A DNA stretch of 64,000 nt from Escherichia coli (lineage in GTDB: Bacteria; Pseudomonadota; Gammaproteobacteria; Enterobacterales; Enterobacteriaceae). Position 1 is the stretch's first letter, and each line of letters begins with the position of its first letter. The DNA is taken from assembly GCF_046105845.1 (NCBI RefSeq), contig NZ_CP151004.1; one strand, given 5' to 3'. The position numbers and the translations under genes are program-made. Shown piece after piece: positions 42,326 to 64,000 of this stretch. The notes beneath the pieces were generated by a model, which worked only from the letters and a program-made list of their open reading frames with translations, did not search any database and was not told the DNA's origin.

Positions 42326-42453
42326 AATGACTCCTTGATTGAAATTGCGTATCGAAAACAGCATCTAAAAGGACTGTTTACCGATTAAAGTATGAGCGAT
42401 TTTCAGGCGGTTGCCAGGGCGAAGAGATAATGTCAGATAGCCGACAATGCATG

Positions 42454-42504: not shown

Positions 42505-43227
42505 TTAAACGATGCGGCAGGCGTCGGCTTCCCAGCGGTAACCGACGCCGTAAACGGCACGGATAAAGGACTGTTCGGCGTCGAGAGATTCCAGCTTGCG
42601 ACGCAGGTTTTTAATGTGGCTGTCGATGGTGCGGTCGGTTACTACGCGGTAGTCGTCATAAAGATGATTGAGCAATTGCTCGCGGGAGAACACTTTTCCT
42701 GGTTCATGAGAGAGCGTTTTCAACAGACGAAATTCCGCAGGCGTCAGGTCAAGCATTTTTCCGCGCCAGGAAGCCTGAAAACGACCTTCGTCGATAATCA
42801 ACGGGCTTTCAGCATCCTGTTGCTGCAACTCACGCTGGGGTTTGCAACGGCGCAAAATGGTTTTGACGCGCGCTACCACTTCCCGTGGGCTGTACGGTTT
42901 GCAGATGTAGTCATCAGCGCCAATTTCCAGCCCCAGCAGGCGGTCGATCTCTTCGATTTTTGCTGTCACCATCACGATCGGAATGTCAGAAAAACGACGA
43001 ATTTCCCGGCACAGCGTCAGGCCATCGGTGCCAGGGAGCATCAGATCCAGCAGGATCAGATCCGGTGGTGTCTGGCGCACATACGGCAGTACCTGATCGC
43101 CGTGGCTGATAAGCGTCGGCGCATAGCTCGCAGCACGCAGATAATCAATGAGCAACTGCCCCAGCTTCGGTTCATCTTCCACGATCAAAATACGCGGTGT
43201 GTTTTCGTCGATTGGTAACTCGGTCAT
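42505..43227 (-). CDS. baeR: Envelope-stress response regulator (OmpR family)
   Basis: 240 aa. Confidence 0.95.
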
Positions 43228-44627
43228 ACTTCTCTCTGTAAATCCCGTTCCAGCGGTAACTCTACTGTAATGCTTACCCCGCCAAAAGGCGAATGGGTAG
43301 CAATAATGCGGCCATTATGTGCTTCAACAATGTTCAGGCAAATCGCCAGCCCCAGCCCGGAACCGCCGCTGGCACGGTTGCGGGAGCCTTCGGTGCGATA
43401 AAAACGTTCAAACAATTTTTGTAGTTGATCGTCACTGACACCCGGCGCGCTGTCGGCAAAGGTCAGGCGCACCGTTTTGTCGTGCTGCTCGGCAGAGATT
43501 TTCAGGCTGCCGCCGCTGTCAGTGTAGCGCAGGCTGTTTTCCAGTAAGTTATTGAATAACTGCATTAAACGGTCGCGATCGCCAAATACGGTAATACTGT
43601 CTGGCAGGGAAAATTGCAGTTTCAGGCCACGGCTGGCGAATCGTTCGCGAAATGCGCCGCCCGCCACTTCCAGCAGTGGGATCAAATCTACTGATGCTTT
43701 TTGATAGGCGAGAGCGCCTTCATCAGACATCGACAACTGATGAAGATCGTCAACCAGTTTGGTCAGTGTACCGACCTCCGCCTGTAAAGACGCCACCGTC
43801 TCCGGCGTGAATTTGCGCACGCCATCCTGAATGGCTTCCAGTTCACCGCGCAGCACCGCTAATGGCGTACGCAGTTCGTGAGAAATATCGGCCATAAAAT
43901 CGCGCCGCATTTGCTGGTTTTTCTCCAGCGTGCTGGCGAGCTGGTTGAAGTCCTGCGCCAGTTTGCCCAGTTCATCTTCACTGGTGGGCGTCACGCGGGT
44001 TGTGAAATCGCCCGCCGCCAGTTTGTGCGTGCCGTCCACCAGCCGTTTGACCGGGGCCAACAGACCACGCGCCAGCAGAAAGGTGGCGAGCGCCGCGAGT
44101 AACGTTGCCAGGGCGACAATCAGCCAGCTGGTTTGCCGCTGTTGTTTATCGAAATTGATATCAGTATTGCGGGTCAGTCGCTCAACAGGGGAGGCAATCA
44201 CCGCACCCACTTCCGCACCGTTGACCAGAATGGGTCGCCGTGTACCGTCAGGTGGAATCGGCGCTCGCGGACCAACCAGCACTTTGTTGTTTTGATCGAC
44301 CACCCAGAATTGAGTACGCCAGCCGTGCGGTGGCATACCCGGGCCGGGTTTATCTTCCGAATTATCGTGTTCAAATGAACGCAGGATCTGAAAGACAAAG
44401 CGATCATTGTTGCGCAGGAAGCGCCAGTTGCCATGCTGCGCATACTGCTCGCCAAGCGCATCACTTAACAGTTGTAATCGCTGTTCATTACCATGCTTGA
44501 TGTAATCAATAAAGCCACGCTCAAAACTGATACGCACCGCCCAGTGCATACTGATCAGCAAGACAATGCAGGTGGCGAAAATCGCCAGAAACAGTTTGCC
44601 AGTAATACCGGGTCGCCAGAACTTCAT
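43224..44627 (-). CDS. baeS: Envelope-stress sensor histidine kinase
   Basis: 467 aa; H-box SHELRTPL. Confidence 0.95.
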
Positions 44628-46039
44628 TGCGCGCTCCTTTTTCGCCGCGAAATAGCTACATTTTGATGCGTATCGTTCGGCACTCTGGCAAAGATGAACG
44701 CCGGAAGGGCGATGATAAACGCCATGCTAAGCCAGGTGTACATAAAGACGGTTTGTGTGGTGCCGCTGTCGACGCTGACATGCTGTGAACCAAAAAGTCC
44801 CAGCAACAGCCCGGCGATAGTGACACCGATACTCATCGACAATTGCATAATCATCGACAGCAGGCTGTTTCCGCTGCTCGCCAGATTGTCCGGGAGATCT
44901 TTCAGCGTCAGGGTGTTCATGGAGGAGAAACGCGTTGAGTTGACCATTCCTTGTAAAAACAGGACGAACGGCAAAACGTAGTACCAGCCCAGCAGGGCGG
45001 TAGTCATAAACAACAGGGTGACCAGCGACAGACCCAGCGTGGTCGCTACCAGTACCCGACGATAACCAAAGCGATTCACCACCTGTACCACAATTCGCTT
45101 CATTCCCATGCTGCCGAGTACCATCGGGATCATCATCAGTCCGGCATGAAACGGCGAGAAACCGAGGCCAATTTGCAGGAAAACCGGTGTCATAAAGGGC
45201 AACATGCCACTGCCAATACGTCCGGCAAAGCTCCCCGCCAGGCCCAGCGAAAAGGTACGAGTGCGGAACAGTTTCAGACTGAACAGGGCGCGGTTGTTAT
45301 TTCTGGCGTGCAGCAGATAAAGCACCAGTGCCACCACGCCAACTGCGACCAGGCCAGCAATCGCCAGCGGCGATAAACCTGTACCTTTACTGCCGTCCAG
45401 CGCCAGGGTTAATACCGCCATGCCAACCGCCAGCAATAAAAAGCCGGAGAGATCAAAGCGCCGCGTCTGCATGGTGTAGTTCGGCATTAACATCAGTGTG
45501 GCGATCGCACCGATAATCCCCACCGGAATGTTGATCAAAAAGATCCAGTGCCAGGAGGCGTACTCCACCAGCAGGCCGCCGAGCGCCGGACCGAGCAGCG
45601 GCCCGACCTGACCGGGTAACGTGACAAAGGTCATCGCCGCCATATATTGCTCGCGTGGTACGATTTTCATCACCGTCAACCTGCCGACCGGCACCATCAT
45701 CGCGCCGCCAACGCCCTGTAACGCGCGTGCCAGCAACAGTTCGTTCAGCGTGCCGGAAAGCGCGCAAAACAGTGAACCGAGAGTAAACAGCACGATGGCG
45801 GTAAAGAAAATATTGCGCACGCCGACTTTGTCCGCCAGCCAGCCGCTGGCGGGCAGCATCACCGCCACGGTCAGTACATAAGAGACAATGACCATGTGCA
45901 TATGCAACGGACTTTCCCCGAGGCTTTGCGCCATTGAGGGAAGCGCGGTGTTAACGATGGTGGTGTCCAGCGACTGCATAAAAAAGCCGAAAGCCACAAT
46001 CCACAATTGCCAGCGGGTGCTGTCGGGAAGATCTGTCAT
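44624..46039 (-). CDS. mdtD: MFS transporter
   Basis: 471 aa. Confidence 0.95.
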
Positions 46040-49000
46040 TTACTCGGTTACCGCTTGTTTAGGTTTACGCGAAAAACGCAGCCGCAGACGGTCGAAAAAG
46101 AGATACACCACCGGAGTGGTATACAGCGTCAGAAGCTGGCTCATTACCAGACCGCCGACAATGGTGATCCCCAATGGTTGCCGCAGCTCCGAGCCGTCAC
46201 CGCCCGACAATACCAGCGGCAGCGCGCCAAACAGCGCCGCCAGGGTAGTCATCATAATCGGGCGAAAACGCAGCAGGCAGGCCTGGAAAATAGCTTCCTG
46301 CGGCGTCAGGTTACCGTGCCGTTGAGCTTCAAGCGCAAAATCGACCATCATAATGGCGTTTTTCTTCACGATGCCGATTAATAGCATGATCCCTATCAGG
46401 GCGATTAGGCTGAACGGGGCATTGAACAGCTCCAGCGCCAACAGCGCTCCAACGCCCGCCGAGGGCAGGGTGGAGAGAATCGTCAGCGGATGTACGTAAC
46501 TCTCGTAAAGGATACCCAGCACGATATACACCGTGGCGATGGCGGCGATAATCAGGATCACCTGCGAGTTCATCGTCTCCTGGAACACCTGCGCCGTGCC
46601 GGCAAAACTGCCGCGCACCGTCGAAGGCACACCAAGCTGGGTCATTGCGCGATCGATCGCCGTACTGGCGTCCGAGAGCGATTTCCCGGTCGGCAGGTTA
46701 AACGAAATGGTCGATGCCGCCGATAATCCCTGATGATTCACCGACAGCGGAGCATTCGCCGGTTGCCATTTAGCGAAATACGACAGCGGGATCGCTTTTC
46801 CTTCGTTATTGATAACGAACATTTTTTCCAGCGCGCTGATGTCCTGGGTATAGCGCGGATCCACTTCCATCACCACTTTGTACTGGTTCATCGGCTGGTA
46901 AATGGTCGAGATTTGCCGCTGACCGAAGGCGTTATTTAACAGGCTGTTGGCGGCCTGCACGTCGATTCCCAGCCGCGCCATGGTGTCGCGGTCGTAAACC
47001 AGATTCATCTCCGCGCCGTTATCCTGCTGATCGGAGTTCACGTCCGCCAGCTCTGGCAATGTCGCCAGTTTTTTGCTGATTTTCGGCTCCCATTCGCGCA
47101 GTGCCGCCAGGTCGTCGGATAGCAACGTGTACTGATAGCTGGCGTTCGACTGACGTCCGCCAACGCGAATATCCTGTACCGCCATCAGGAACAGATTCGC
47201 CCCCGGTTCTTTCGCCAGTTTTACGCGCAGACGGTCGATAATTTGCTGCGCCGTTTCGCTGCGTTCGTCGCGTGGCTTGAGGGTGATAAACATCATCCCA
47301 CTGTTCACCCGCGAACCGCCGGTAAATCCGGTGACATTATCCACCGCCGGATCGTCACGGATAATTTTCATGAAATCCTGCAACTTACCGCGCATTGCCT
47401 GAAACGAAATACTCTGATCCGCCTGTATCCCGCCCATCAACACGCCGGTGTCCTGCTCCGGGAAGAAGGTTTTCGGGATCGAGATATATAGCCAGATATT
47501 CAGCGCAATGGTGCCAAGCAGCACCACGCCCACCAGACGGGTATGATTGAGCACCCATTTCAGCGACTTGCCATAGCCTTGTTGCAGGGCTACCAACATG
47601 CGACCAAAACCACGCAGTCGCTTTTGCTCGCGCGGCTTGCTGGCTTTCAGCATCCAGCCACACATCATCGGCGTTAGCGTCAGGGAAACCAGCAACGAAA
47701 TACCAATGGCGACAGAAAGCGTCACGGCAAACTCGCGTAACAGTCGGCCCGGCAATCCGCCCATCAACAGCAGCGGCAGGAACACCGCCACCAGTGACAG
47801 ACTCATCGACAGCACCGTAAAACCGACTTCGCGAGTACCTTGCAGTGCGGCTTGCAACGGTTTCATTCCCGCTTCCAGATGACGTGCAATGTTTTCCAGC
47901 ACCACGATGGCGTCATCCACCACGAAACCAGTAGCAATGGTGAGCGCCATTAACGAAAGATTATTGAGACTGAAACCGCACAGGTACATCGCCGCAAACG
48001 TACCAATCAGCGAAACCGGCACCGCAACGGCGGGAATAATAGTGGCGCGACCCGAGCGCAGGAATAAAAAGACCACCAGAATGACCAGCGCCACCGAGAT
48101 AATCAGCGTTTGCTCGACTTCCTCCAGCGAGGCGCGAATAGTGGGGGAGCGATCCTGGGCAATTTGCAGATCAATCGCCGCCGGAATGGTCTCCTGCAAC
48201 TCCGGTAATTTTGCCCGGATGCTGTCAACCGTCTGGATAATATTGGCTTCCGGCAGCTTGCGGATCATCAGCAAAATAGCCGGTTTGGCATTGGTCATCC
48301 CGGCGTTACGTACATCCTGTACAGAGTCGGTCACCGTCGCCACATCGCCCAGACGAACCGCGCCGCCGTTGTTGTAATGAATAATCAACGGCTGATATTC
48401 AGCGGCTGTTTTCAGTTCATCGTTGGTCTGGATCTGCCAGCGGTGAGTGCCATCTTCCAGCGCGCCCTGCGGTTTACGCACGTTGGCATTGCTGATGGCG
48501 GTGCGTACGTCGTCCAGCGACACGCCCTGATTAAACAGCGCCTGCGGATTCAGCCCGACGCGTACGGCGGGCAGTGAGCTGCCGCCGACATCGACATCAC
48601 CAACACCGTCGATTTGCGAAATCGTCGGAGCCAGCTGCGTCGAGGCGAAATCGTACAGTTCACCCTGCGAATAAGTATCGGACGTCAGCGTGAGGATCAT
48701 AATTGGCGCATCCGACGGGTTCGCTTTGCGATAGGTCGGACGGCTGGGCATCCCACTGGGCAGCAAACTTTGTGCAGCGTTGATCGCCGCCTGCACATCA
48801 CGCGCTGCGCCGTTGATATCCCGGTCAAAATCAAACTGCAAAATAATGCGCGTGCTGCCGAGCGAACTGCTGGAGGTCATTTCACTAACCCCGGCAATGC
48901 GCCCAAGTGAGCGCTCCAGCGGTGTGGCAACGGAAGACGCCATTGTTTCTGGTGACGCACCGGGCAGCGAGGCGCTGACCATAATCACCGGAAAATCGAC

Positions 49001-49117
49001 CTGCGGCAGTGGGGCGACCGGCAGCATACGGAAGCCCAGTATGCCGCACAGGGTAATGGCGACCGACAGTAAAATCGTCGCCACCGGGCGGTAAATGAAG
49101 AGGGCAAAAAACTTCAC
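46040..49117 (-). CDS. mdtC: RND multidrug efflux pump subunit
   Basis: 1025 aa. Confidence 0.95.
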
Positions 49118-52100
49118 TTACGCCTCCTCTTCATGACGGGCAAAGCGACTTTTGGTCCACAATGCCAGGCGGTCGAACAGCAGATAAATCACCGGCGTGG
49201 TGAACAGCGTCAGCACCTGGCTGACAATCAGACCGCCGACCATGCCGATACCTAACGGACGACGCAGTTCCGCGCCGACCCCGGTACTCAACATCAGCGG
49301 CAGCGCGCCAAGCAGAGCCGCCAGAGTGGTCATCAGGATCGGCCGAAAACGCAACAGACAAGCCTGGTAGATGGCATCGCGCGGCGACATGCCTTGCTCG
49401 CGCTCAGCAGCCAGCGCGAAGTCGATCATCATGATGGCGTTCTTCTTCACGATACCGATCAGCAAAATAATGCCGATAATTGCAATCACATCCAGTTCGC
49501 TACCAGCAATCATTAACGCCAGCAGTGCGCCAACACCTGCGGTGGGTAGCGTCGAGAGAATGGTGATCGGGTGAATAAAGCTCTCGTACAGAATGCCGAG
49601 CACGATATACATCGCCACCACCGCCGCGACAATCAGCCAGACAGTGCTGCCTAGCGCCGACTGGAAGGCGAGGGTGCTGCCCTGGAATTGCGTGGTGATA
49701 TCCACCGGCAGATTCAGCGTCTTTTCGGTGTCCATAATCGCCTGCACCGCATCGCCCAGCGAATAGTTATCCGGCACGTTAAAGGAGATAGTCGTTACCG
49801 GGAACTGATCCAGATGGTTGATGGAGAGCGGCGCAAAACGCTGCTCAATTTTGGCAATTGAGCTTAGCGGCACCACGCCGCCGTCGCTGCTGGTCAGGCG
49901 AATGGTATCCAGCGCCGCGAGGCCTGGGGTATTTTCGGTGTTGTGTTCCAGCACCACGCGATACTGGTTAGCCTGAGTATAAATAGTGGAAATCAGCCGC
50001 TGACCAAACGCGTTGTACAGGGCGTTATCGACGTCCGCCATGCTGATCCCCAGACGGCTGGCGCTGTCGCGATCAACATTGACATACGCCACCAGCCCTT
50101 TGTCCTGCCAGTCGCTGGAGACATCAGATAGCTGTGGCAACTGCTGGAGTTTTTCCATCAACTGTGGCACCCAGGTACTGAGCGCATCCAGTGACGTGGC
50201 CTGCAAGGTAAACTGGTACTGGGTGCGGCTGACCTGAGTATCGATGGTCAGGTCCTGCGTTGGTTGCAGGAAGAGATCGACGCCCGGCACTTTATCCACC
50301 GCCGTTTGCAGACGGGCGATGACTTTTTGCACCCGATCATCACGTTCATCCAACGGTTTGAGGTTGATCTGCAAACGCGCACTGTTCAGCGACGGGTTAG
50401 TGCCATCAACGCCAACAAATGAGGTCAGACTTTGCACTGCCGGATCCTGCAAAATCACATCCGCGACCTGGCGTTGCCGCTGGGCCATATTGGTAAAGGA
50501 GCTGGATTGCGGTGCCTGCAAAGTGCCCTGAATAATGCCGTTGTCCTGTACCGGGAAGAAACCTTTCGGAATGAACACCCACAACAGCACGCTAAGCAGC
50601 AGCGTGCTGAGCGCCACGCTTAAGGTCAGCCACGGATGATTCAGCACTTTCGCCAGTCCACGACCATAGGCGGCGATTATCCTGTCGAACATTTTCTCCG
50701 AGGCTCGGGAGAAGCGATTCTGTTTACGCAGCGACTCCTGGCTGAGCATCCGCGCGCACATCATCGGCGTCAGAGTCAGCGACACCACGGCTGAGATCAA
50801 AATCGCGACTGCCAGAGTAATAGCAAATTCGCGGAACAGTCGCCCGACGATATCGCCCATAAATAGCAGTGGGATCAACACTGCAATCAGTGAGAAGGTC
50901 AGCGAGATAATGGTAAAGCCGATTTCACCCGCGCCCTTGAGCGCCGCCGCCAACGGTTTTTCGCCTTTTTCGATATAGCGGGAAATGTTTTCGATTACCA
51001 CGATGGCGTCATCGACCACGAATCCGGTGGCGATAGTTAACGCCATCAGCGTCAGGTTATTGATTGAAAAATCGAGAAACACCATAACCGCAAAGGTGCC
51101 AATTAACGACAGCGGCACTGCGACGCCAGGAATGATGGTCGCCGGAATATTGCGCAAAAACAGGTAGATAATCATGACTACCAGCGCGATAGCCATCATC
51201 AGTTCAAACTGGGTATCGTCGACCGATGCGCGGATGTTGGTGGTGCGGTCAGAAAGCACCGTCACTTTTACCGATTTCGGCAAACTCTCGGTGAGTTGTG
51301 GCAGCATCTGCCGGATGCTGTCGGCGGTGGAGATAATGTTAGCACCGGGCTGGCGCTGAACATTCATCACAATGGCCTGTTCTTTGTTCGCCCACGCGCC
51401 GAGCCAGCTGTTTTCTGCTCCTTGCTCTACGGTTGCGACATCGCCCAGACGAATCGGCGCGCCGTTCTGGTAGGCGATGATCAGCTGGCGATACTCTTCG
51501 GCGGATTGCATCTGGTCGTTCGCGGAAAGTGTGACCGCACGGGAAGGGCCGTCGAGGCTACCTTTTGCCGAGTTAACGTTAGCGCCGGTAATAGCGGTGC
51601 GCACGGTTTCGCTGGTCAGGCCGAGGGCGGCAATCGCCTGGGCGTTAAGTTTGACGCGAACAGCCGGACGCTGGCCGCCGGAAAGCGTCACCAGGCCGAC
51701 GCCGGAAATCTGCGAGATTTTTTGCGCGACGCGGGTTTCCACCATATCTTCCACCTGGGTCATCGGCATGGCGGTTGAGGTGACAGCGAGCGTCATGATT
51801 GGCGGATCTGCCGGGTTCACTTTGCTGTAAACCGGCGGGTTAGGCAGATCGCTCGGTAGCAGGTTGGTCGCAGCGTTAATCGCGGCCTGCACTTCCTGCT
51901 CGGCGACATCCAGCGGTAATGTTAGCTGGAACTGCAAAGTGATAACTGACGCACCGCCGGAACTTTGCGACGACATCTGTTTCAGGCCAGACATCTGCCC
52001 AAACTGGCGTTCAAGCGGCGCGGTAACGGCAGAGGTCATGACATCCGGGCTCGCACCTGGGTAGAGCGTGACTACCTGAATGGTCGGATAGTCCACTTCC

Positions 52101-52240
52101 GGCAGCGCCGAAACGGGCAGGGCACGATAACCGATAATCCCGGCGAGTAAGATCGCCACCATCAGCAGCGTGGTGGCGACAGGACGCATAATAAACAGGC
52201 GCGATGGGCCGCCTGTGATGCTCGGGGGTAACACCTGCAT
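49118..52240 (-). CDS. mdtB: RND multidrug efflux pump subunit
   Basis: 1040 aa. Confidence 0.95.
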
Positions 52241-53487
52241 CAGGAGCGTGCTCCTTTTTTCGCGTATTCGCGGCTGGTGGCTTTCTCTTCCGGAGTGGTG
52301 GCGCTCTGGGCTTCCACTACTTCCACTTTCGCCCCTTCGGTCAGGCGATCAATGCCGTCTGTCACTACGCGGTCGCCCGCAGAAATACCTGCGCGGATCA
52401 CTACTTTCTGACTGTCCTGAATGCCCGGCGTCACCAGATGTTTGCTGACCTTGTTTTCGCTATTCAGCACCCAGACAAAATGGCCTTCGTTGCCCATTTG
52501 CAGAGCGGCGGTGGGGATCACCACGGCGTTTTGTTCGGTGTCGACTAACATACGCGCGTTAACAAACTGATTGGGAAACAGCGCATCATCCTGATTATTA
52601 AAGCGTGCTTTCACTTTAATCGTACCGGTAGTGGCATCGATTTGGTTATCGAGGCTTAACAGCGTGCCTTCACTTAATTTCTTCGAGTTGGTGCGATCCC
52701 AGGCTTCTACCACCAGCGGTTTTCCGGTTTTTTGCGCCTGTACTACGGTAGCGATATCGCTTTCCGGCAGGGTAAAGAGCAAATCGATAGGATGCGTCTG
52801 GGTGATCACCACAATCCCGGTGGTATCACCACTGGAGATTTGGTTACCAACATCAACCTGCTTGAGACCAACGCGACCATCGACTGGCGCGGTGATGCGG
52901 CTCCAGTCGAGTTGCAGCTGTGCGCTGGCGACGCTTGCTTCATCAGCCTTAATGGTGCCTTCGGTTTCACTGACCAGCGCCTGTTGGGCATCCAGTTCCT
53001 GACGAGATACGAGATTGGTTTTTACCAGTTGTTGATAACGCGCCAGGTCACGGCGGGCGTTGGCAAGCGTGGCTTTATCTTTTGCCAGTTGGCCCTGGGC
53101 TTGTGCTAATGCAACTTTGAACTGGCTTGGGTCAATTTCTGCCAGTAAATCGCCTGCTTTGACCTGCTGGCCTTCCTGGAAATGTAACGCCATCAGTTGA
53201 CCGTCCACGCGGCTGCGCACCGTAACGGTATTAGCGGCGGTAATGGTGCCAAGCCCGGTGAGATAACGTGGCACAGCTTGTTCTACGGCAGTCGCCGCCT
53301 GAACCGGGGCTAATGGACCGGAACGCATACCACGGCGACCACCCGCTGGCGATTGCTGCGCTTGTTTCGTCGCCCCTGGGGCTGCACTCTGGGAGTCATT
53401 GCGGCCTTGCCAGAACCAGAATGCGGCGATGGCGGCGATAACCACCACGATTACGATTACCCAACGGGATTTATAACTGCCTTTCAT
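52240..53487 (-). CDS. mdtA: RND membrane-fusion (periplasmic adaptor) protein
   Basis: 415 aa from [12 protein letters not shown]; ORF track extends 49 codons further upstream. Confidence 0.9.
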
Positions 53488-53540
53488 CGTTAAGAGTTTC
53501 TCTTCCTGAAACGTTTCGCGGAATGATACTAGTGTAGCCA

Positions 53541-53558
53541 GCCAATAAGGGAGAAAAA
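53541..53558 (-). promoter_or_regulatory. BaeR box upstream of mdtA
   Basis: Minus-strand TTTTTCTCCCTTATTGGC, 17 of 18 match to recalled consensus TTTTTCTCCATDATTGGC. Confidence 0.6.
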
Positions 53559-53689
53559 TGGAGGAATTATGAAACACTGTCGGGAATCGTCTGAATGACG
53601 GGCACATTTGCGAGCACGCATCCAGTAATAACACATGAAACTATTTTATCTACGCGTTAGCGATAGACTACGTGCATGGCGAAAGGAGG

Positions 53690-53850
53690 TAAGCCGATGA
53701 TTTCAGCGGGACGCTGAAACGGGAAAGCCCCTCCCGAGGAAGGGGCCATAAATAAGGAAAGGGTCATGATGAAGCTACTCATCATCGTGGTGCTCTTAGT
53801 CATTAGCTGGCCAGCTTACTAAGACTACCAGGGCGGGGGAAACCCCGCTC
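53690..53850 (-). ncRNA. Sib-type antisense sRNA antitoxin, copy 1 (approximate ends)
   Basis: Inferred from known ibs/sib architecture; hairpins flank the ibs ORF. Confidence 0.45.
53766..53822 (+). CDS. Ibs-family toxin peptide MMKLLIIVVLLVISWPAY
   Basis: 18-aa hydrophobic ORF with AGGAAAGGG ribosome-binding site; not in ORF track. Confidence 0.75.
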   Translation: MMKLLIIVVLLVISWPAY

Positions 53851-54019
53851 TACCCTCACTCCTGAAAGTATGCCTTCACGATAAGATTGTCAATCTGCAG
53901 GCTTTGCAGTCTGCGATCCTGCCAGCAAATATTCTTTGCGAGACGTTACGCAATAATCACACTGGAAACTATTTTATCCGCAAGTCAGCGATAGACTGCA
54001 TTCAGGGCGAAAGGAGGTA

Positions 54020-54180
54020 AGCCGACGATTTCAGCGGGACGCTGAAACGGGAAAGCCCCTCCCGAGGAAGGGGCCTTAAATAAGGAAAGGGTCATGATGA
54101 AGATACTCATCATCGTGGTGCTCTTAGTGATTAGCTACCCAGCATACTAAGACTACCAGGGCGGGGGAAACCCCGCTCTA
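54020..54180 (-). ncRNA. Sib-type antisense sRNA antitoxin, copy 2 (approximate ends)
   Basis: Inferred from repeat architecture. Confidence 0.45.
54094..54150 (+). CDS. Ibs-family toxin peptide MMKILIIVVLLVISYPAY
   Basis: Second repeat unit, same architecture. Confidence 0.75.
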   Translation: MMKILIIVVLLVISYPAY

Positions 54181-54349
54181 CCCTCACTCCTGAAATTATG
54201 CCTTCACGATAAGATTGTCAATCCGCAGGCTTTGCAGTCTGCGATCCTGCCAGCAAATATTCTTTGCGAGTCGTTACGCAATAATCACAGAGGAAACTAT
54301 TTTATTCACGCGTTAGCGATAGACTGCATTCAGGGCGAAAGGAGGTAAG

Positions 54350-54510
54350 CCGACGATTTCAGCGGGACGCTGAAACGGGAAACCCTCTCCCGGAGAAGAG
54401 GGCTTTTAATAAGGAAAGGGTTATGATGAAGCACGTCATCATACTGGTGATACTCTTAGTGATTAGCTTCCAGGCTTACTAAGAACACCAGGGGGAGGGG
54501 GAAACCTCTC
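54350..54510 (-). ncRNA. Sib-type antisense sRNA antitoxin, copy 3 (approximate ends)
   Basis: Inferred from repeat architecture. Confidence 0.45.
54423..54482 (+). CDS. ibsA: Ibs-family toxin peptide MMKHVIILVILLVISFQAY
   Basis: Third repeat unit; peptide matches recalled K-12 IbsA. Confidence 0.75.
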   Translation: MMKHVIILVILLVISFQAY

Positions 54511-54702
54511 CCTAACCCTCACTCCTGAAATTATGTCACTCCGCCCTTAGTGTCAATCGACGGCTCTCCGTTCTTGCGAGGCGAATAGCAAAATTTTCTG
54601 CGCCGCCGGGCCTAATTCTGAAAGTTTCTTCGTTTGCTCTTATTTCATTATTGCAATCGGTATGATACCGGACCTCGATAATTCTCTAAGAAAGGATTTC
54701 TT

Positions 54703-61186: not shown

Positions 61187-64000
61187 TTAGTTAATCGCGA
61201 AATAACTGCTATTCACCAGCAAATCCAGCGGTTGGGCATCGGCAATCACATCGCCATAAATCAGATCGACGCCGATGCCAGAAAGCGTATCCATCACCAG
61301 GGGTAAAACTACTGGCCCGGCGATGGTCTTCATCCCGAGCCGCTGAGCGTGCCCCTGAATGATCGTAATCAGCATCTCATCCATCAAATTTCCCTGCACG
61401 TTGGCGCATAACTCACCATCAAGTAGTAGGTAATCTGCCATATTTGCTTTCAGCGAGTTGAAGATTTGCAGATCGCGGCCCACCTGATTGAATACGATCC
61501 GACATCCCGCCAGCCGCAGTTTTTGCACGTTTTCTGCGTGATCTAAAATCGCGTCTGCCGGAATAATCAGATGTAATAACCGTGGTGGTAGAGGGCTATT
61601 TTCCAGCTGCTCAATTAGTTCATTCACCAGCGTGGCGCTACTCAAACCGGCAACGGAAAGCGGGAGGGCGATGCTTATACCTTTACTGGCAACCGCTTTG
61701 GCGGCCTGCTGGAAAAAATCGTGGAATACCCGTCGGTCAAGAGCATGGCTAAGTGCCGGATCGCTGAAGCTACGACGAAATGTTTGTTCATCAATAATCT
61801 CGCCTTCGCAACTCCAGAGCTTAAGTGAAATCAGCCACAAATTACGCGCTTCCGGGATCCGCGGCGAAGCGACACCGTGGGCGATCATCATCAACTGATT
61901 CTCTTTAATCATCCGCCACTGTTCATCAAGCGACATCGCCGCCCGTTCGCTATGTGCGGTAGCTTGCTGCGGTTCGTAAATCGTCACCCGGCCCCGGCCA
62001 CCATTTTTGGAGGCATAACAGGCGATATCAGCCTGCGACATCACTTCAGCCGCCTGATGATTGTTGTCATCAATCAAGGTAATCCCGGCACTGGCACCTA
62101 CCCGATGTACACGTCCTTCCCAGATAAAGTGATAGTCATTCACGGCGCTGATAATGCGTGTAGCGATAAAACGCGCACTTTCGACATTACAATCTGGCAG
62201 CAGCAGACCAAATTCATCGCCACCGAGTCGCGCTAGCACGTCGCTGGAGCGCAGCATACTCAGCATCAATGACGCCAGTTCGCGCAACAAAGCGTCGCCA
62301 GCGGCGTGCCCGGCGCTGTCATTCACCGCTTTAAAGCGATCAAGATCGATAAACACCAGTGCATGTCGCTGATGTGTACTGTTTACCGTTTGCAGCAGGA
62401 TGCGTAGTTGCTTCTCAAAACTGGCGCGATTGGCGAGATGCGTCAGTGCATCATGGGAGGCGCTGTAGCTCAGCTGGCGCAGCATTTTGCGTGATTCGGT
62501 GACGTCCTGAATCACCAGAACCGAGCCTATATTGCTGCCGTCCAGAGTACTTAACGGCGTAATACTGTAATGCACGTCGTAGCTGCCGCCGCTCCGACAG
62601 TGCAACACCACATCTTGTTCAATCGCGGAACGTGAGGTGTCGGCACTGTAAATGTTCTCCATTAATGGTCCGTTGTCGCCAAAAGTAATATGCAACACCG
62701 TCAGGAGCGGAACACCTAATGCTTCTTCCTGCGTCCAGCCGCTCATCTTCTCCGCCACCGGATTCATAAAGGTAATTTTCATTGCCATATCAATACAGAC
62801 CACGGCTTCGCCGATGGAATCCAGCGTTATGTGCAGGCGCTCTTTTTCCTGAAACAATGCCTCGTTAAGCTGTTTCACTTCGGTCATATCCATATTAATG
62901 CCGAGCAGGCGTTCGACTTCGCCTTCTTTATTCAGTACCCGGTTAGCGAGGGCGCGGATATGGCGAATGCCGTCTTTCACGGTAATGCGAAATTCCAGTT
63001 TAAAGGGAGAGCGCGATTGCAATGAATCGCGAATCACTTTTTCGGCGTGCTGGCGATCTTCCGGCAGCACGCACTCGTACCACACCTGCCAGTTCGGTTT
63101 GATATGCGGAGGAATTTCATACAGCTCGAACATCCGCTTATCCCAGCTAAAAATATTCGGCTTAAGCTCCCACTCCCAGATGCCAATTCCGCCCGCTTCG
63201 TTAGCCAGCGTGATGCGCTCCATCAGTTGCTGGTTCACCTGTTCGGTGCGTTTTAGCTCGTTAATGTCTTCAATCTGAGCGATAAAATAGAGCGGCGTAC
63301 CATCGGTGTGGCGCACCAGTGAGACGGCAAGCAACGCCCAGACAACATCGCCATTGCGGTTGTAGTAGCGTTTTTCCATTGAATAGGTGTTTATTTCACC
63401 GCTGATCAGCTTTTCAACCTGTTGCAGATCTTTATTGAGATCCTCCGGCCAGGTCAGTTGCTGAAAGGTGAGTCCGCGCAGTTCTTCCTGACTGTAACCG
63501 AGAAACTGGCAGAGCGCTTTGTTGGATTGCAGCCATTGCCCCTCGGTGCCCACTAATGCCATGCCGATGGCGGAATATTCCATGGCATTACGAAAACGGG
63601 TTTCGCTTTCAGAGATGTGTTTGCGTTCCGCACGAAAGGCATACATCACCATGGTCATGATGTTGGCGGGCAGCAGGATCAGCAAAAACGGTAGCCACGG
63701 CATATGGCTCATCAGGTATGTACGCGGCGTAGCAAGCAGGGAGGGATCAGCGGCCATCATCAGTGACACCATCATCACCGTGGTAAGGAAGATCAAAAAG
63801 GCTTCCATTCGTGGCAGGCGCACGGCGCTCCACATCAACAGCACAATAATGAAAGTAAAAGGCCACGGCAGATACAGCATCGAAAGCCAGCTTAACGTCA
63901 GTGTGATGGCTAACGTGAGCAGCGACTCAAAAAGCAACCGTGGGTTGCGATGGCGCAGCAGATAGTGTGGTTTAAATAACAACCCCAGCGGCACCAGTGC
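61187..64000 (-). CDS. dgcE: Diguanylate cyclase / phosphodiesterase, multi-PAS GGDEF-EAL protein; C-terminal about 935 codons, N-terminus beyond window end
   Basis: GGDEF motif RLGGDEFG, PAS repeats and EAL region visible; reading frame open to the window edge. Confidence 0.85.
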   Translation of the reverse strand, partial: ALVPLGLLFKPHYLLRHRNPRLLFESLLTLAITLTLSWLSMLYLPWPFTFIIVLLMWSAVRLPRMEAFLIFLTTVMMVSLMMAADPSLLATPRTYLMSHMPWLPFLLILLPANIMTMVMYAFRAERKHISESETRFRNAMEYSAIGMALVGTEGQWLQSNKALCQFLGYSQEELRGLTFQQLTWPEDLNKDLQQVEKLISGEINTYSMEKRYYNRNGDVVWALLAVSLVRHTDGTPLYFIAQIEDINELKRTEQVNQQLMERITLANEAGGIGIWEWELKPNIFSWDKRMFELYEIPPHIKPNWQVWYECVLPEDRQHAEKVIRDSLQSRSPFKLEFRITVKDGIRHIRALANRVLNKEGEVERLLGINMDMTEVKQLNEALFQEKERLHITLDSIGEAVVCIDMAMKITFMNPVAEKMSGWTQEEALGVPLLTVLHITFGDNGPLMENIYSADTSRSAIEQDVVLHCRSGGSYDVHYSITPLSTLDGSNIGSVLVIQDVTESRKMLRQLSYSASHDALTHLANRASFEKQLRILLQTVNSTHQRHALVFIDLDRFKAVNDSAGHAAGDALLRELASLMLSMLRSSDVLARLGGDEFGLLLPDCNVESARFIATRIISAVNDYHFIWEGRVHRVGASAGITLIDDNNHQAAEVMSQADIACYASKNGGRGRVTIYEPQQATAHSERAAMSLDEQWRMIKENQLMMIAHGVASPRIPEARNLWLISLKLWSCEGEIIDEQTFRRSFSDPALSHALDRRVFHDFFQQAAKAVASKGISIALPLSVAGLSSATLVNELIEQLENSPLPPRLLHLIIPADAILDHAENVQKLRLAGCRIVFNQVGRDLQIFNSLKANMADYLLLDGELCANVQGNLMDEMLITIIQGHAQRLGMKTIAGPVVLPLVMDTLSGIGVDLIYGDVIADAQPLDLLVNSSYFAIN

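Follow-up and report, generated by a model that had tools for sequence, protein, structure and literature searches.

BaeSR, which regulates the efflux pumps MdtABC and AcrD together with the chaperone Spy, contributes to envelope-stress and antibiotic tolerance. Binding of the regulator BaeR to the mdtA promoter is stated for E. coli and Salmonella in PMC4107485 and PMC3160322, and is traced to Baranova & Nikaido 2002 and Nagakubo et al. 2002 where PMC4107485 and PMC6375597 cite them. The consensus TTTTTCTCCATDATTGGC, which goes back to Nishino et al. 2005, is given verbatim by PMC3799227 and PMC3915751, the former of which also describes a BaeR CTNCA core and a repeated motif, TCTNCANAA, which Yamamoto et al. 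2008 defined on spy with the core occurring as direct repeats. CTCCA-type direct repeats with 11-bp phasing are likewise known for the related regulators AdeR (AAGTGTGGAG-N-AAGTGTGGAG, that is, CTCCACACTT repeats) and DzrR (two CTCCAT) (PMC10052836). In E. coli MG1655, two BaeR ChIP-exo peaks lie 5' of mdtA and have been assigned to the unit mdtABCD-baeSR (PMC7657598 Data Set S2). Under 5% ethanol, a baeR knockout lowered expression of mdtA (log2 -4.0), mdtB (-3.8), mdtC (-3.6), iceT(mdtD) (-3.4) and baeS (-4.6), a 10- to 25-fold decrease of mdtA-D and baeS, with no effect in unstimulated cells (PMC7657598).

Here we compare these systems with a site in a 64-kb stretch of E. coli DNA (the window), the minus strand of which reads ...CATAATTCCTCCATTTTTCTCCCTTATTGGCTGGCTACACTAGTATCATTCC...ACGATGAAAGGC and carries the published mdtA-promoter site TTTTTCTCCCTTATTGGC exactly at 53558..53541. 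The initial annotation had reported a minus-strand BaeR box about 55 bp before the mdtA start, which agrees with the 53 nt that separate the box from the mdtA ATG (53487) and with a box 3' end at -54 from the A of this codon. The box is on the same strand as mdtA, 5' of the gene and in sense orientation, an arrangement also found at K-12 mdtA, spy and acrD. The consensus used in that annotation is confirmed by the verbatim quotations in PMC3799227 and PMC3915751 cited above, and a recount gave the same 17 of 18 matching positions, with C for A at position 10 as the sole mismatch. The identical 17/18 sequence with the same mismatch is present at K-12 mdtA, so the mismatch is a trait of the E. 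coli mdtA site rather than of this strain. As the E. coli mdtA promoter itself contributed to the consensus, some circularity attaches to the 17/18 score, and the match therefore marks the E. coli mdtA promoter and does not test BaeR binding independently.

The 521 nt around the box are 100% identical to the enteroaggregative E. coli strain 042 (NC_017626.1). At MG1655 2153945-2153962 the BaeR box of K-12 mdtA (yegM) is base-for-base the same 18-mer, and the two loci also agree in at least 115 nt of surrounding sequence, ATG distance, downstream operon and orientation; the site itself is unchanged, the host being strain 042 rather than K-12. When the locus was aligned with a K-12 derivative and two further E. 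coli strains, columns 143-241 were invariant, a range that begins 30 nt upstream of the box and ends 5 nt beyond the mdtA ATG. Of 5,414 E. coli records, 5,291 carried an identical 50-nt promoter core (53575..53526) and the rest differed at about one position, whereas only 99 records were at least 99% identical over the surrounding 521 nt, which indicates that the core is more constrained than its neighbourhood. What the window carries here is the already described BaeR box of the mdtABCD-baeSR promoter, unchanged from K-12.

Upstream of the mdtA region, three tandem 328-bp units at 53607-54590 each encode an Ibs-family type I toxin, e.g. MMKLLIIVVLLVISWPAY, with one plus-strand Ibs ORF per unit (53766-53822, 54094-54150 and 54423-54482) and an antisense Sib RNA to be expected from the minus strand; there are two such units in K-12 (ibsA/sibA and ibsB/sibB). 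The proximal Ibs/Sib unit ends at 53607 and thus bounds the mdtA regulatory region to approximately 120 bp. Elsewhere in the window, dgcE (yegE, diguanylate cyclase; ~61188-64000) is a frameshifted pseudogene according to the annotation of NC_017626.1.

The comparison with published BaeR binding data that the initial annotation had proposed is in its favour. Mapped onto the window via the gap-free K-12 alignment, with an uncertainty of +/-1 nt as the table may be 0-based, peak_5 (K-12 2153931-2153967, S/N 11.0; PMC7657598) corresponds to minus-strand positions 53572..53536, reads TCATAATTCCTCCATTTTTCTCCCTTATTGGCTGGCT and contains the whole identical box. The second peak, peak_6 (K-12 2153972-2153998, S/N 15.0; PMC7657598), corresponds to 53531..53505 on the minus strand, reads TAGTATCATTCCGCGAAACGTTTCAGG and spans the region from -10 to about +20; it probably reflects RNA polymerase cross-linked with BaeR. 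Autoregulated expression of mdtABCD-baeSR from this box, also put forward at the outset, is supported by the K-12 peak, by the drop in the baeR knockout and by the operon layout. Transferred from the identical K-12 sequence, BaeR occupancy would be expected at the box in strain 042, and BaeR-dependent induction of mdtABCD-baeSR would carry over from the K-12 data by the same identity.

The genes mdtA (53487..52240; encoding the membrane fusion component of the MdtABC RND pump and heading the operon), mdtB (52240..49118), mdtC (49117..46040), mdtD (46039..44624), baeS (44627..43224; sensor kinase) and baeR (43227..42505; the box-binding regulator and last gene of the operon) all lie on the minus strand, that of the box, following the 042 annotation, with overlapping or abutting frames, and a 179-nt gap then precedes yegP. 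This arrangement is the published transcription unit mdtABCD-baeSR, and the single-strand run of abutting or overlapping frames from mdtA to baeR makes autoregulation from this promoter structurally plausible. About 60 nt past the baeR stop, a weak terminator-like hairpin on the minus strand (42431-42446; six pairs followed by TTATCTCTTC) is a candidate operon end, scoring no better than shuffled sequences. The mdtA ATG is at the same place in every related locus with enough upstream sequence (79 loci). A mechanically called ORF of 464 aa with a GTG start (52240..53634), which spans the box, was rejected as an artefact given that the ATG at 53487 is annotated and conserved and that 1-nt indels occur upstream of it.

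BaeS carries the Pfam domains HAMP, HisKA and HATPase_c, and BaeR combines Response_reg (PF00072) with Trans_reg_C (PF00486). BaeR matched PDB 4b09, the solved structure of the E. coli protein, along its entire length (E 3.5e-159), and its relatives in the PDB are the OmpR/PhoB-family proteins MtrA, RegX3, PhoP, KdpE, PhoB, BasR and AdeR. Regulators of this family bind direct repeats head-to-tail. Together with the described CTNCA and TCTNCANAA repeats and the AdeR and DzrR half-sites, this family membership supports reading the site as a set of direct repeats. The mdtA operator looks like three such repeats phased by 10-11 bp, all on the minus strand: a candidate distal half-site A, TTTCATAATTC (53574..53564; predicted -50..-40), placed 11 bp upstream of half-site B, CTCCATTTTT (53563..53554; predicted -39..-30), which has a perfect CTCCA core, and a promoter-proximal half-site C, CTCCCTTATTG (53553..53543; predicted -29..-19), which forms the core of the box. 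A, B and C begin at intervals of 11 and 10 bp, with the same phasing in acrD and spy, and the pattern CTCCA-N5-CTCC occurs once in the window. The T-tract of B coincides with the first five bases of the box, and the 18-mer would accordingly consist of this T-tract, half-site C and a terminal GC.

A genome collection was scanned with MdtA, yielding 80 loci, and the -130..+12 regions were aligned as 79 distinct sequences from more than 20 genera, including Escherichia, Citrobacter, Enterobacter, Klebsiella, Raoultella, Lelliottia, Kluyvera, Cedecea and Atlantibacter. Per-column conservation over these 79 promoters revealed a near-invariant block, TTYCATAWTTCCTCCATTTTT, or TT(T/C)CATA(A/T)TTCCTCCATTTTT, at 53574..53554, which shares just its last five positions, the first five bases of the 18-mer, with the box. 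Half-site A is nearly invariant across genera as TT(T/C)CATA(A/T)TTC, and B (CTCCATTTTT) is intact in 64 of the 79 sequences with single substitutions in the other 15. At the remaining 13 box positions (53553..53541) the window base is kept in 14-80% of the sequences, and the segment corresponding to C begins with CTCC in only 19 of the 79, namely six Escherichia, 12 Citrobacter and one metagenome-assembled genome labelled Raoultella. Across the 79 promoters the first five to six bases of the box are thus kept, whereas within E. coli the whole box is fixed, and the 13 3' bases appear to be conserved only in Escherichia and Citrobacter. When more distant promoters were scanned with the consensus, the best match lay about 10 nt further upstream, on ATTTCCTCCATTTTTCCG. 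This pattern suggests that the 18-mer is probably neither the whole operator nor its most conserved part, and, given the 14-80% conservation outside Escherichia and Citrobacter, it may overstate what BaeR needs at mdtA.

Other conserved elements flank the repeats. Just upstream of them, a block on the minus strand at 53596-53576, ATTCAGACGATTCCCGACAGT, contains an invariant GA-N4-TC (53591/53590 and 53585/53584) in the 79 promoters and is neither a CpxR box nor a covarying hairpin; the hairpin reading, suggested by palindromes in several genera, was rejected since A stands opposite C at the flanking pair in most sequences. A second invariant block, CTA(A/C)ACTAGTATCATT, is found at 53537..53522, and an invariant leader block, TTTCAGGAAGAGA, occupies 53511-53499 on the minus strand, 11-16 nt before the mdtA ATG. 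The latter is farther from the ATG than a typical Shine-Dalgarno sequence and may represent a ribosome-binding site with long spacing or some other leader element.

The block at 53537..53522 includes our candidate -10 hexamer, TACACT (53536..53531, minus strand; TAAACT in most genera), which is conserved as TA(A/C)ACT in 78 of the 79 sequences with an invariant A at position 2 and an invariant T at position 6. No recognisable -35 was found 17 nt upstream of TACACT, where the sequence reads ATTTTT. The distance from the CTCCA of half-site B to TACACT is 22 nt, as is that from the acrD CTCCA to TACAGT. From this -10 assignment we predict a transcription start at the A at 53524 on the minus strand (K-12 2153979) and a leader of 37 nt. 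Open complexes usually reach downstream to about +20, and the 3' edge of peak_6 (2153998) falls at about +20 from the predicted start, consistent with a +1 at 53524. An experimentally mapped mdtA start was not found in the accessible literature; the Cappable-seq supplement lists nothing near 2.1539 Mb or, in older coordinates, 2.1532 Mb, and no mdtA start mapping was found in the Salmonella BaeR paper. With +1 at 53524, the cores of the half-sites would be located at -50..-46 (A), -39..-35 (B) and -29..-25 (C), and the 18-mer at -34..-17. The repeats would then take up or overlap the place of the -35 in a promoter that depends on an activator, as in class II geometry, a placement that we infer from the candidate -10. 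PhoB offers a precedent, its pho boxes taking the place of the -35.

Two other promoter assignments were considered. TAGTAT (53531..53526) was ranked below TACACT as a -10 because it reads TAGTAA in four Escherichia-group sequences, compared with 78 of 79 sequences for TA(A/C)ACT. A simple sigma-70 scan returned one match, TTCAGA-18-CATAAT (53595..53566), which was rejected as the main promoter since its start would fall inside the BaeR repeats and its '-35' conserves C rather than G at position 3; its CATAAT fits better as a portion of half-site A. This match is at most a basal upstream promoter.

The BaeR sites of spy and acrD share the core of the mdtA box, with TTTTTCTCCATAATTGGC at spy showing no mismatch and TTTTTCTCCACGATTGGC at acrD one mismatch to the 18-mer. 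All three boxes are in sense orientation and each has another YTYC repeat 11 bp upstream, although their distances to the start codon differ (138 nt in spy, 70 nt in acrD and 53 nt in mdtA). The acrD site reads CTCCTTTTTTT-CTCCACGATTG and the spy site CTCCATCAAAT-TTTCTTTTTTT-CTCCATAATTG, the same build as mdtA, and half-site C of mdtA (CTCCCTTATTG) resembles CTCCATAATTG of spy and CTCCACGATTG of acrD. However, the perfect CTCCA core lies in the repeat upstream of the 18-mer in mdtA and inside the 18-mer in spy and acrD. At spy, neither of the reported ChIP-exo peaks covers the perfect 18-mer (MG1655 1825764-1825781); the upstream peak_2 (1825823-1825843) reads CATAATCTCTGCAAAATCATC, with a CATAAT-NN-CTNCA arrangement like that of A+B at mdtA. 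The mdtA repeats fit the Yamamoto motif poorly: three copies of TCTNCANAA were recovered at spy, whereas at a tolerance of one mismatch none was present in 53487..53760, the best matches there being TCTCCCTTA and GTTTCATAA with two mismatches each. The far-upstream position of the spy boxes indicates that BaeR is not restricted to class II geometry.

Based on these comparisons, we consider it highly probable that the box functions as the BaeR operator at the E. coli mdtABCD-baeSR promoter, with phosphorylated BaeR acting on the A/B/C repeats in class II-type activation and autoregulation. The K-12 sequence identity, operon layout and regulator family are read directly from the locus, and in vivo BaeR occupancy and BaeR-dependent expression have been established in K-12. 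Envelope stress (indole, ethanol, metals or flavonoids) would lead BaeS to phosphorylate BaeR, the winged helix of which, typical of the OmpR/PhoB family, would bind A, B and C head-to-tail across 53574..53543. On the three-half-site reading and the putative -10 and +1, the repeat array would sit at the place of the -35, upstream of the conserved -10-like TACACT, and recruitment of RNA polymerase would depend on BaeR much as it does on PhoB at pho boxes in class II activation. Transcription through mdtA-D into baeS-baeR would then provide positive autoregulation.

Which of the repeats BaeR occupies bears on a different account, in which the functional ancestral operator is A+B (53574..53554, centred near -40) and CTCCCTTATTGGC is a lineage-specific half-site or a mere spacer that is not essential. 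A+B is near-invariant in the 79 promoters of more than 20 genera, of which only 19 have a C beginning with CTCC, the acrD CTCC repeats at predicted -50 and -39 take the positions of A and B in mdtA with the same 22-nt CTCCA-TACA(C/G)T distance, the K-12 spy ChIP-exo peak lies on the A+B-like CATAATCTCTGCAAAATC rather than on the perfect 18-mer, and the Erwinia mdtABC promoter is also bound and activated by BaeR. However, the centre of peak_5 (2153949) falls on the B/C junction, and the right end of the peak at 2153967 reaches past C, as expected if C is occupied; of the 13 bases of CTCCCTTATTGGC, 12 recur in the spy box and 10 in the acrD box, more agreement than a neutral spacer would be likely to show; C is fixed in essentially all E. 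coli; and the geometric argument for A+B leans on putative -10 assignments. Cross-genus conservation and the acrD geometry hence favour A+B, the peak_5 centre favours occupancy of B+C in E. coli, and all three repeats may be used, the 37-bp resolution of ChIP-exo being too coarse to tell occupied repeats apart. Dispensability of C in this form appears unlikely to us. As a tentative proposal that we hold somewhat short of even, the Enterobacteriaceae-wide BaeR operator at mdtA could be TTYCATAWTTC-CTCCATTTTT (53574..53554), with CTCCCTTATTGGC a third half-site gained only in Escherichia and Citrobacter.

It is far less probable, indeed very improbable, that the T/C-rich stretch is a core-promoter feature (spacer or UP-like) or the site of another regulator such as CpxR, with BaeR dependence residing elsewhere. 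With the predicted +1, the 18-mer at -34..-17 would be largely promoter spacer, a second conserved block is present at 53596..53576, and CpxR has been reported to modulate mdtA (PMC10052836, background section). Against this, the CpxR box GTAAA-N5-GTAAA was absent from 53487..53760 on either strand at up to two mismatches, there is no CpxR ChIP-exo peak at mdtA, both mdtA rows of Data Set S2 being in the BaeR sheet (PMC7657598), and the same 18-mer stands 5' of two unrelated genes that BaeR activates, with different spacings to the start codon. Chance resemblance without function is more remote still: the general caveat that consensus matches do not prove function applies, but a scan with TTTTTCTCCATDATTGGC at up to three mismatches returned the box as the one match in the window, none was found at up to one mismatch in 100 dinucleotide shuffles, and the analytic expectation from base composition at that threshold is 2.7e-4 matches per window. 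The sequence is moreover identical to the K-12 site, occupied in ChIP-exo, and fixed across E. coli, and a chance match is effectively refuted by the K-12 occupancy data.

For BaeR-mediated regulation of mdtABCD-baeSR, the intact operator in the pathogenic strain 042 only confirms conservation of the K-12 circuit. The sole addition of this comparison is an indication, drawn from the promoter alignment, that deeply conserved BaeR half-sites may lie immediately upstream of the published 18-mer at mdtA, such that searches with the 18-mer would miss BaeR sites outside Escherichia and Citrobacter. If the Enterobacteriaceae-wide operator proposed above is correct, the published consensus would represent the T-tail of one half-site followed by a full half-site, CTCCATWWTTG, and the motif used for regulon prediction would be revised.

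Among described systems, the closest parallels to the mdtA operator beyond BaeR itself are those of PhoB, KdpE, PmrA/BasR and AdeR, regulators of the same winged-helix Trans_reg_C type that act on direct repeats with a phasing of 10-11 bp. Compared with PhoB-type sites, the mdtA core is CTCCA rather than TGTCA, the repeats possibly number three instead of two, and their position relative to +1 follows from the putative -10. Closest to the BaeR core are the AdeR repeat CTCCACACTT, the reverse complement of AAGTGTGGAG, and the CTCCAT repeats of DzrR. Common to mdtA and the OmpR/PhoB-type operators is a core of 5-7 bp followed by an A/T-rich tail, and with the putative -10 the mdtA array would, like theirs, stand in for a recognisable -35.
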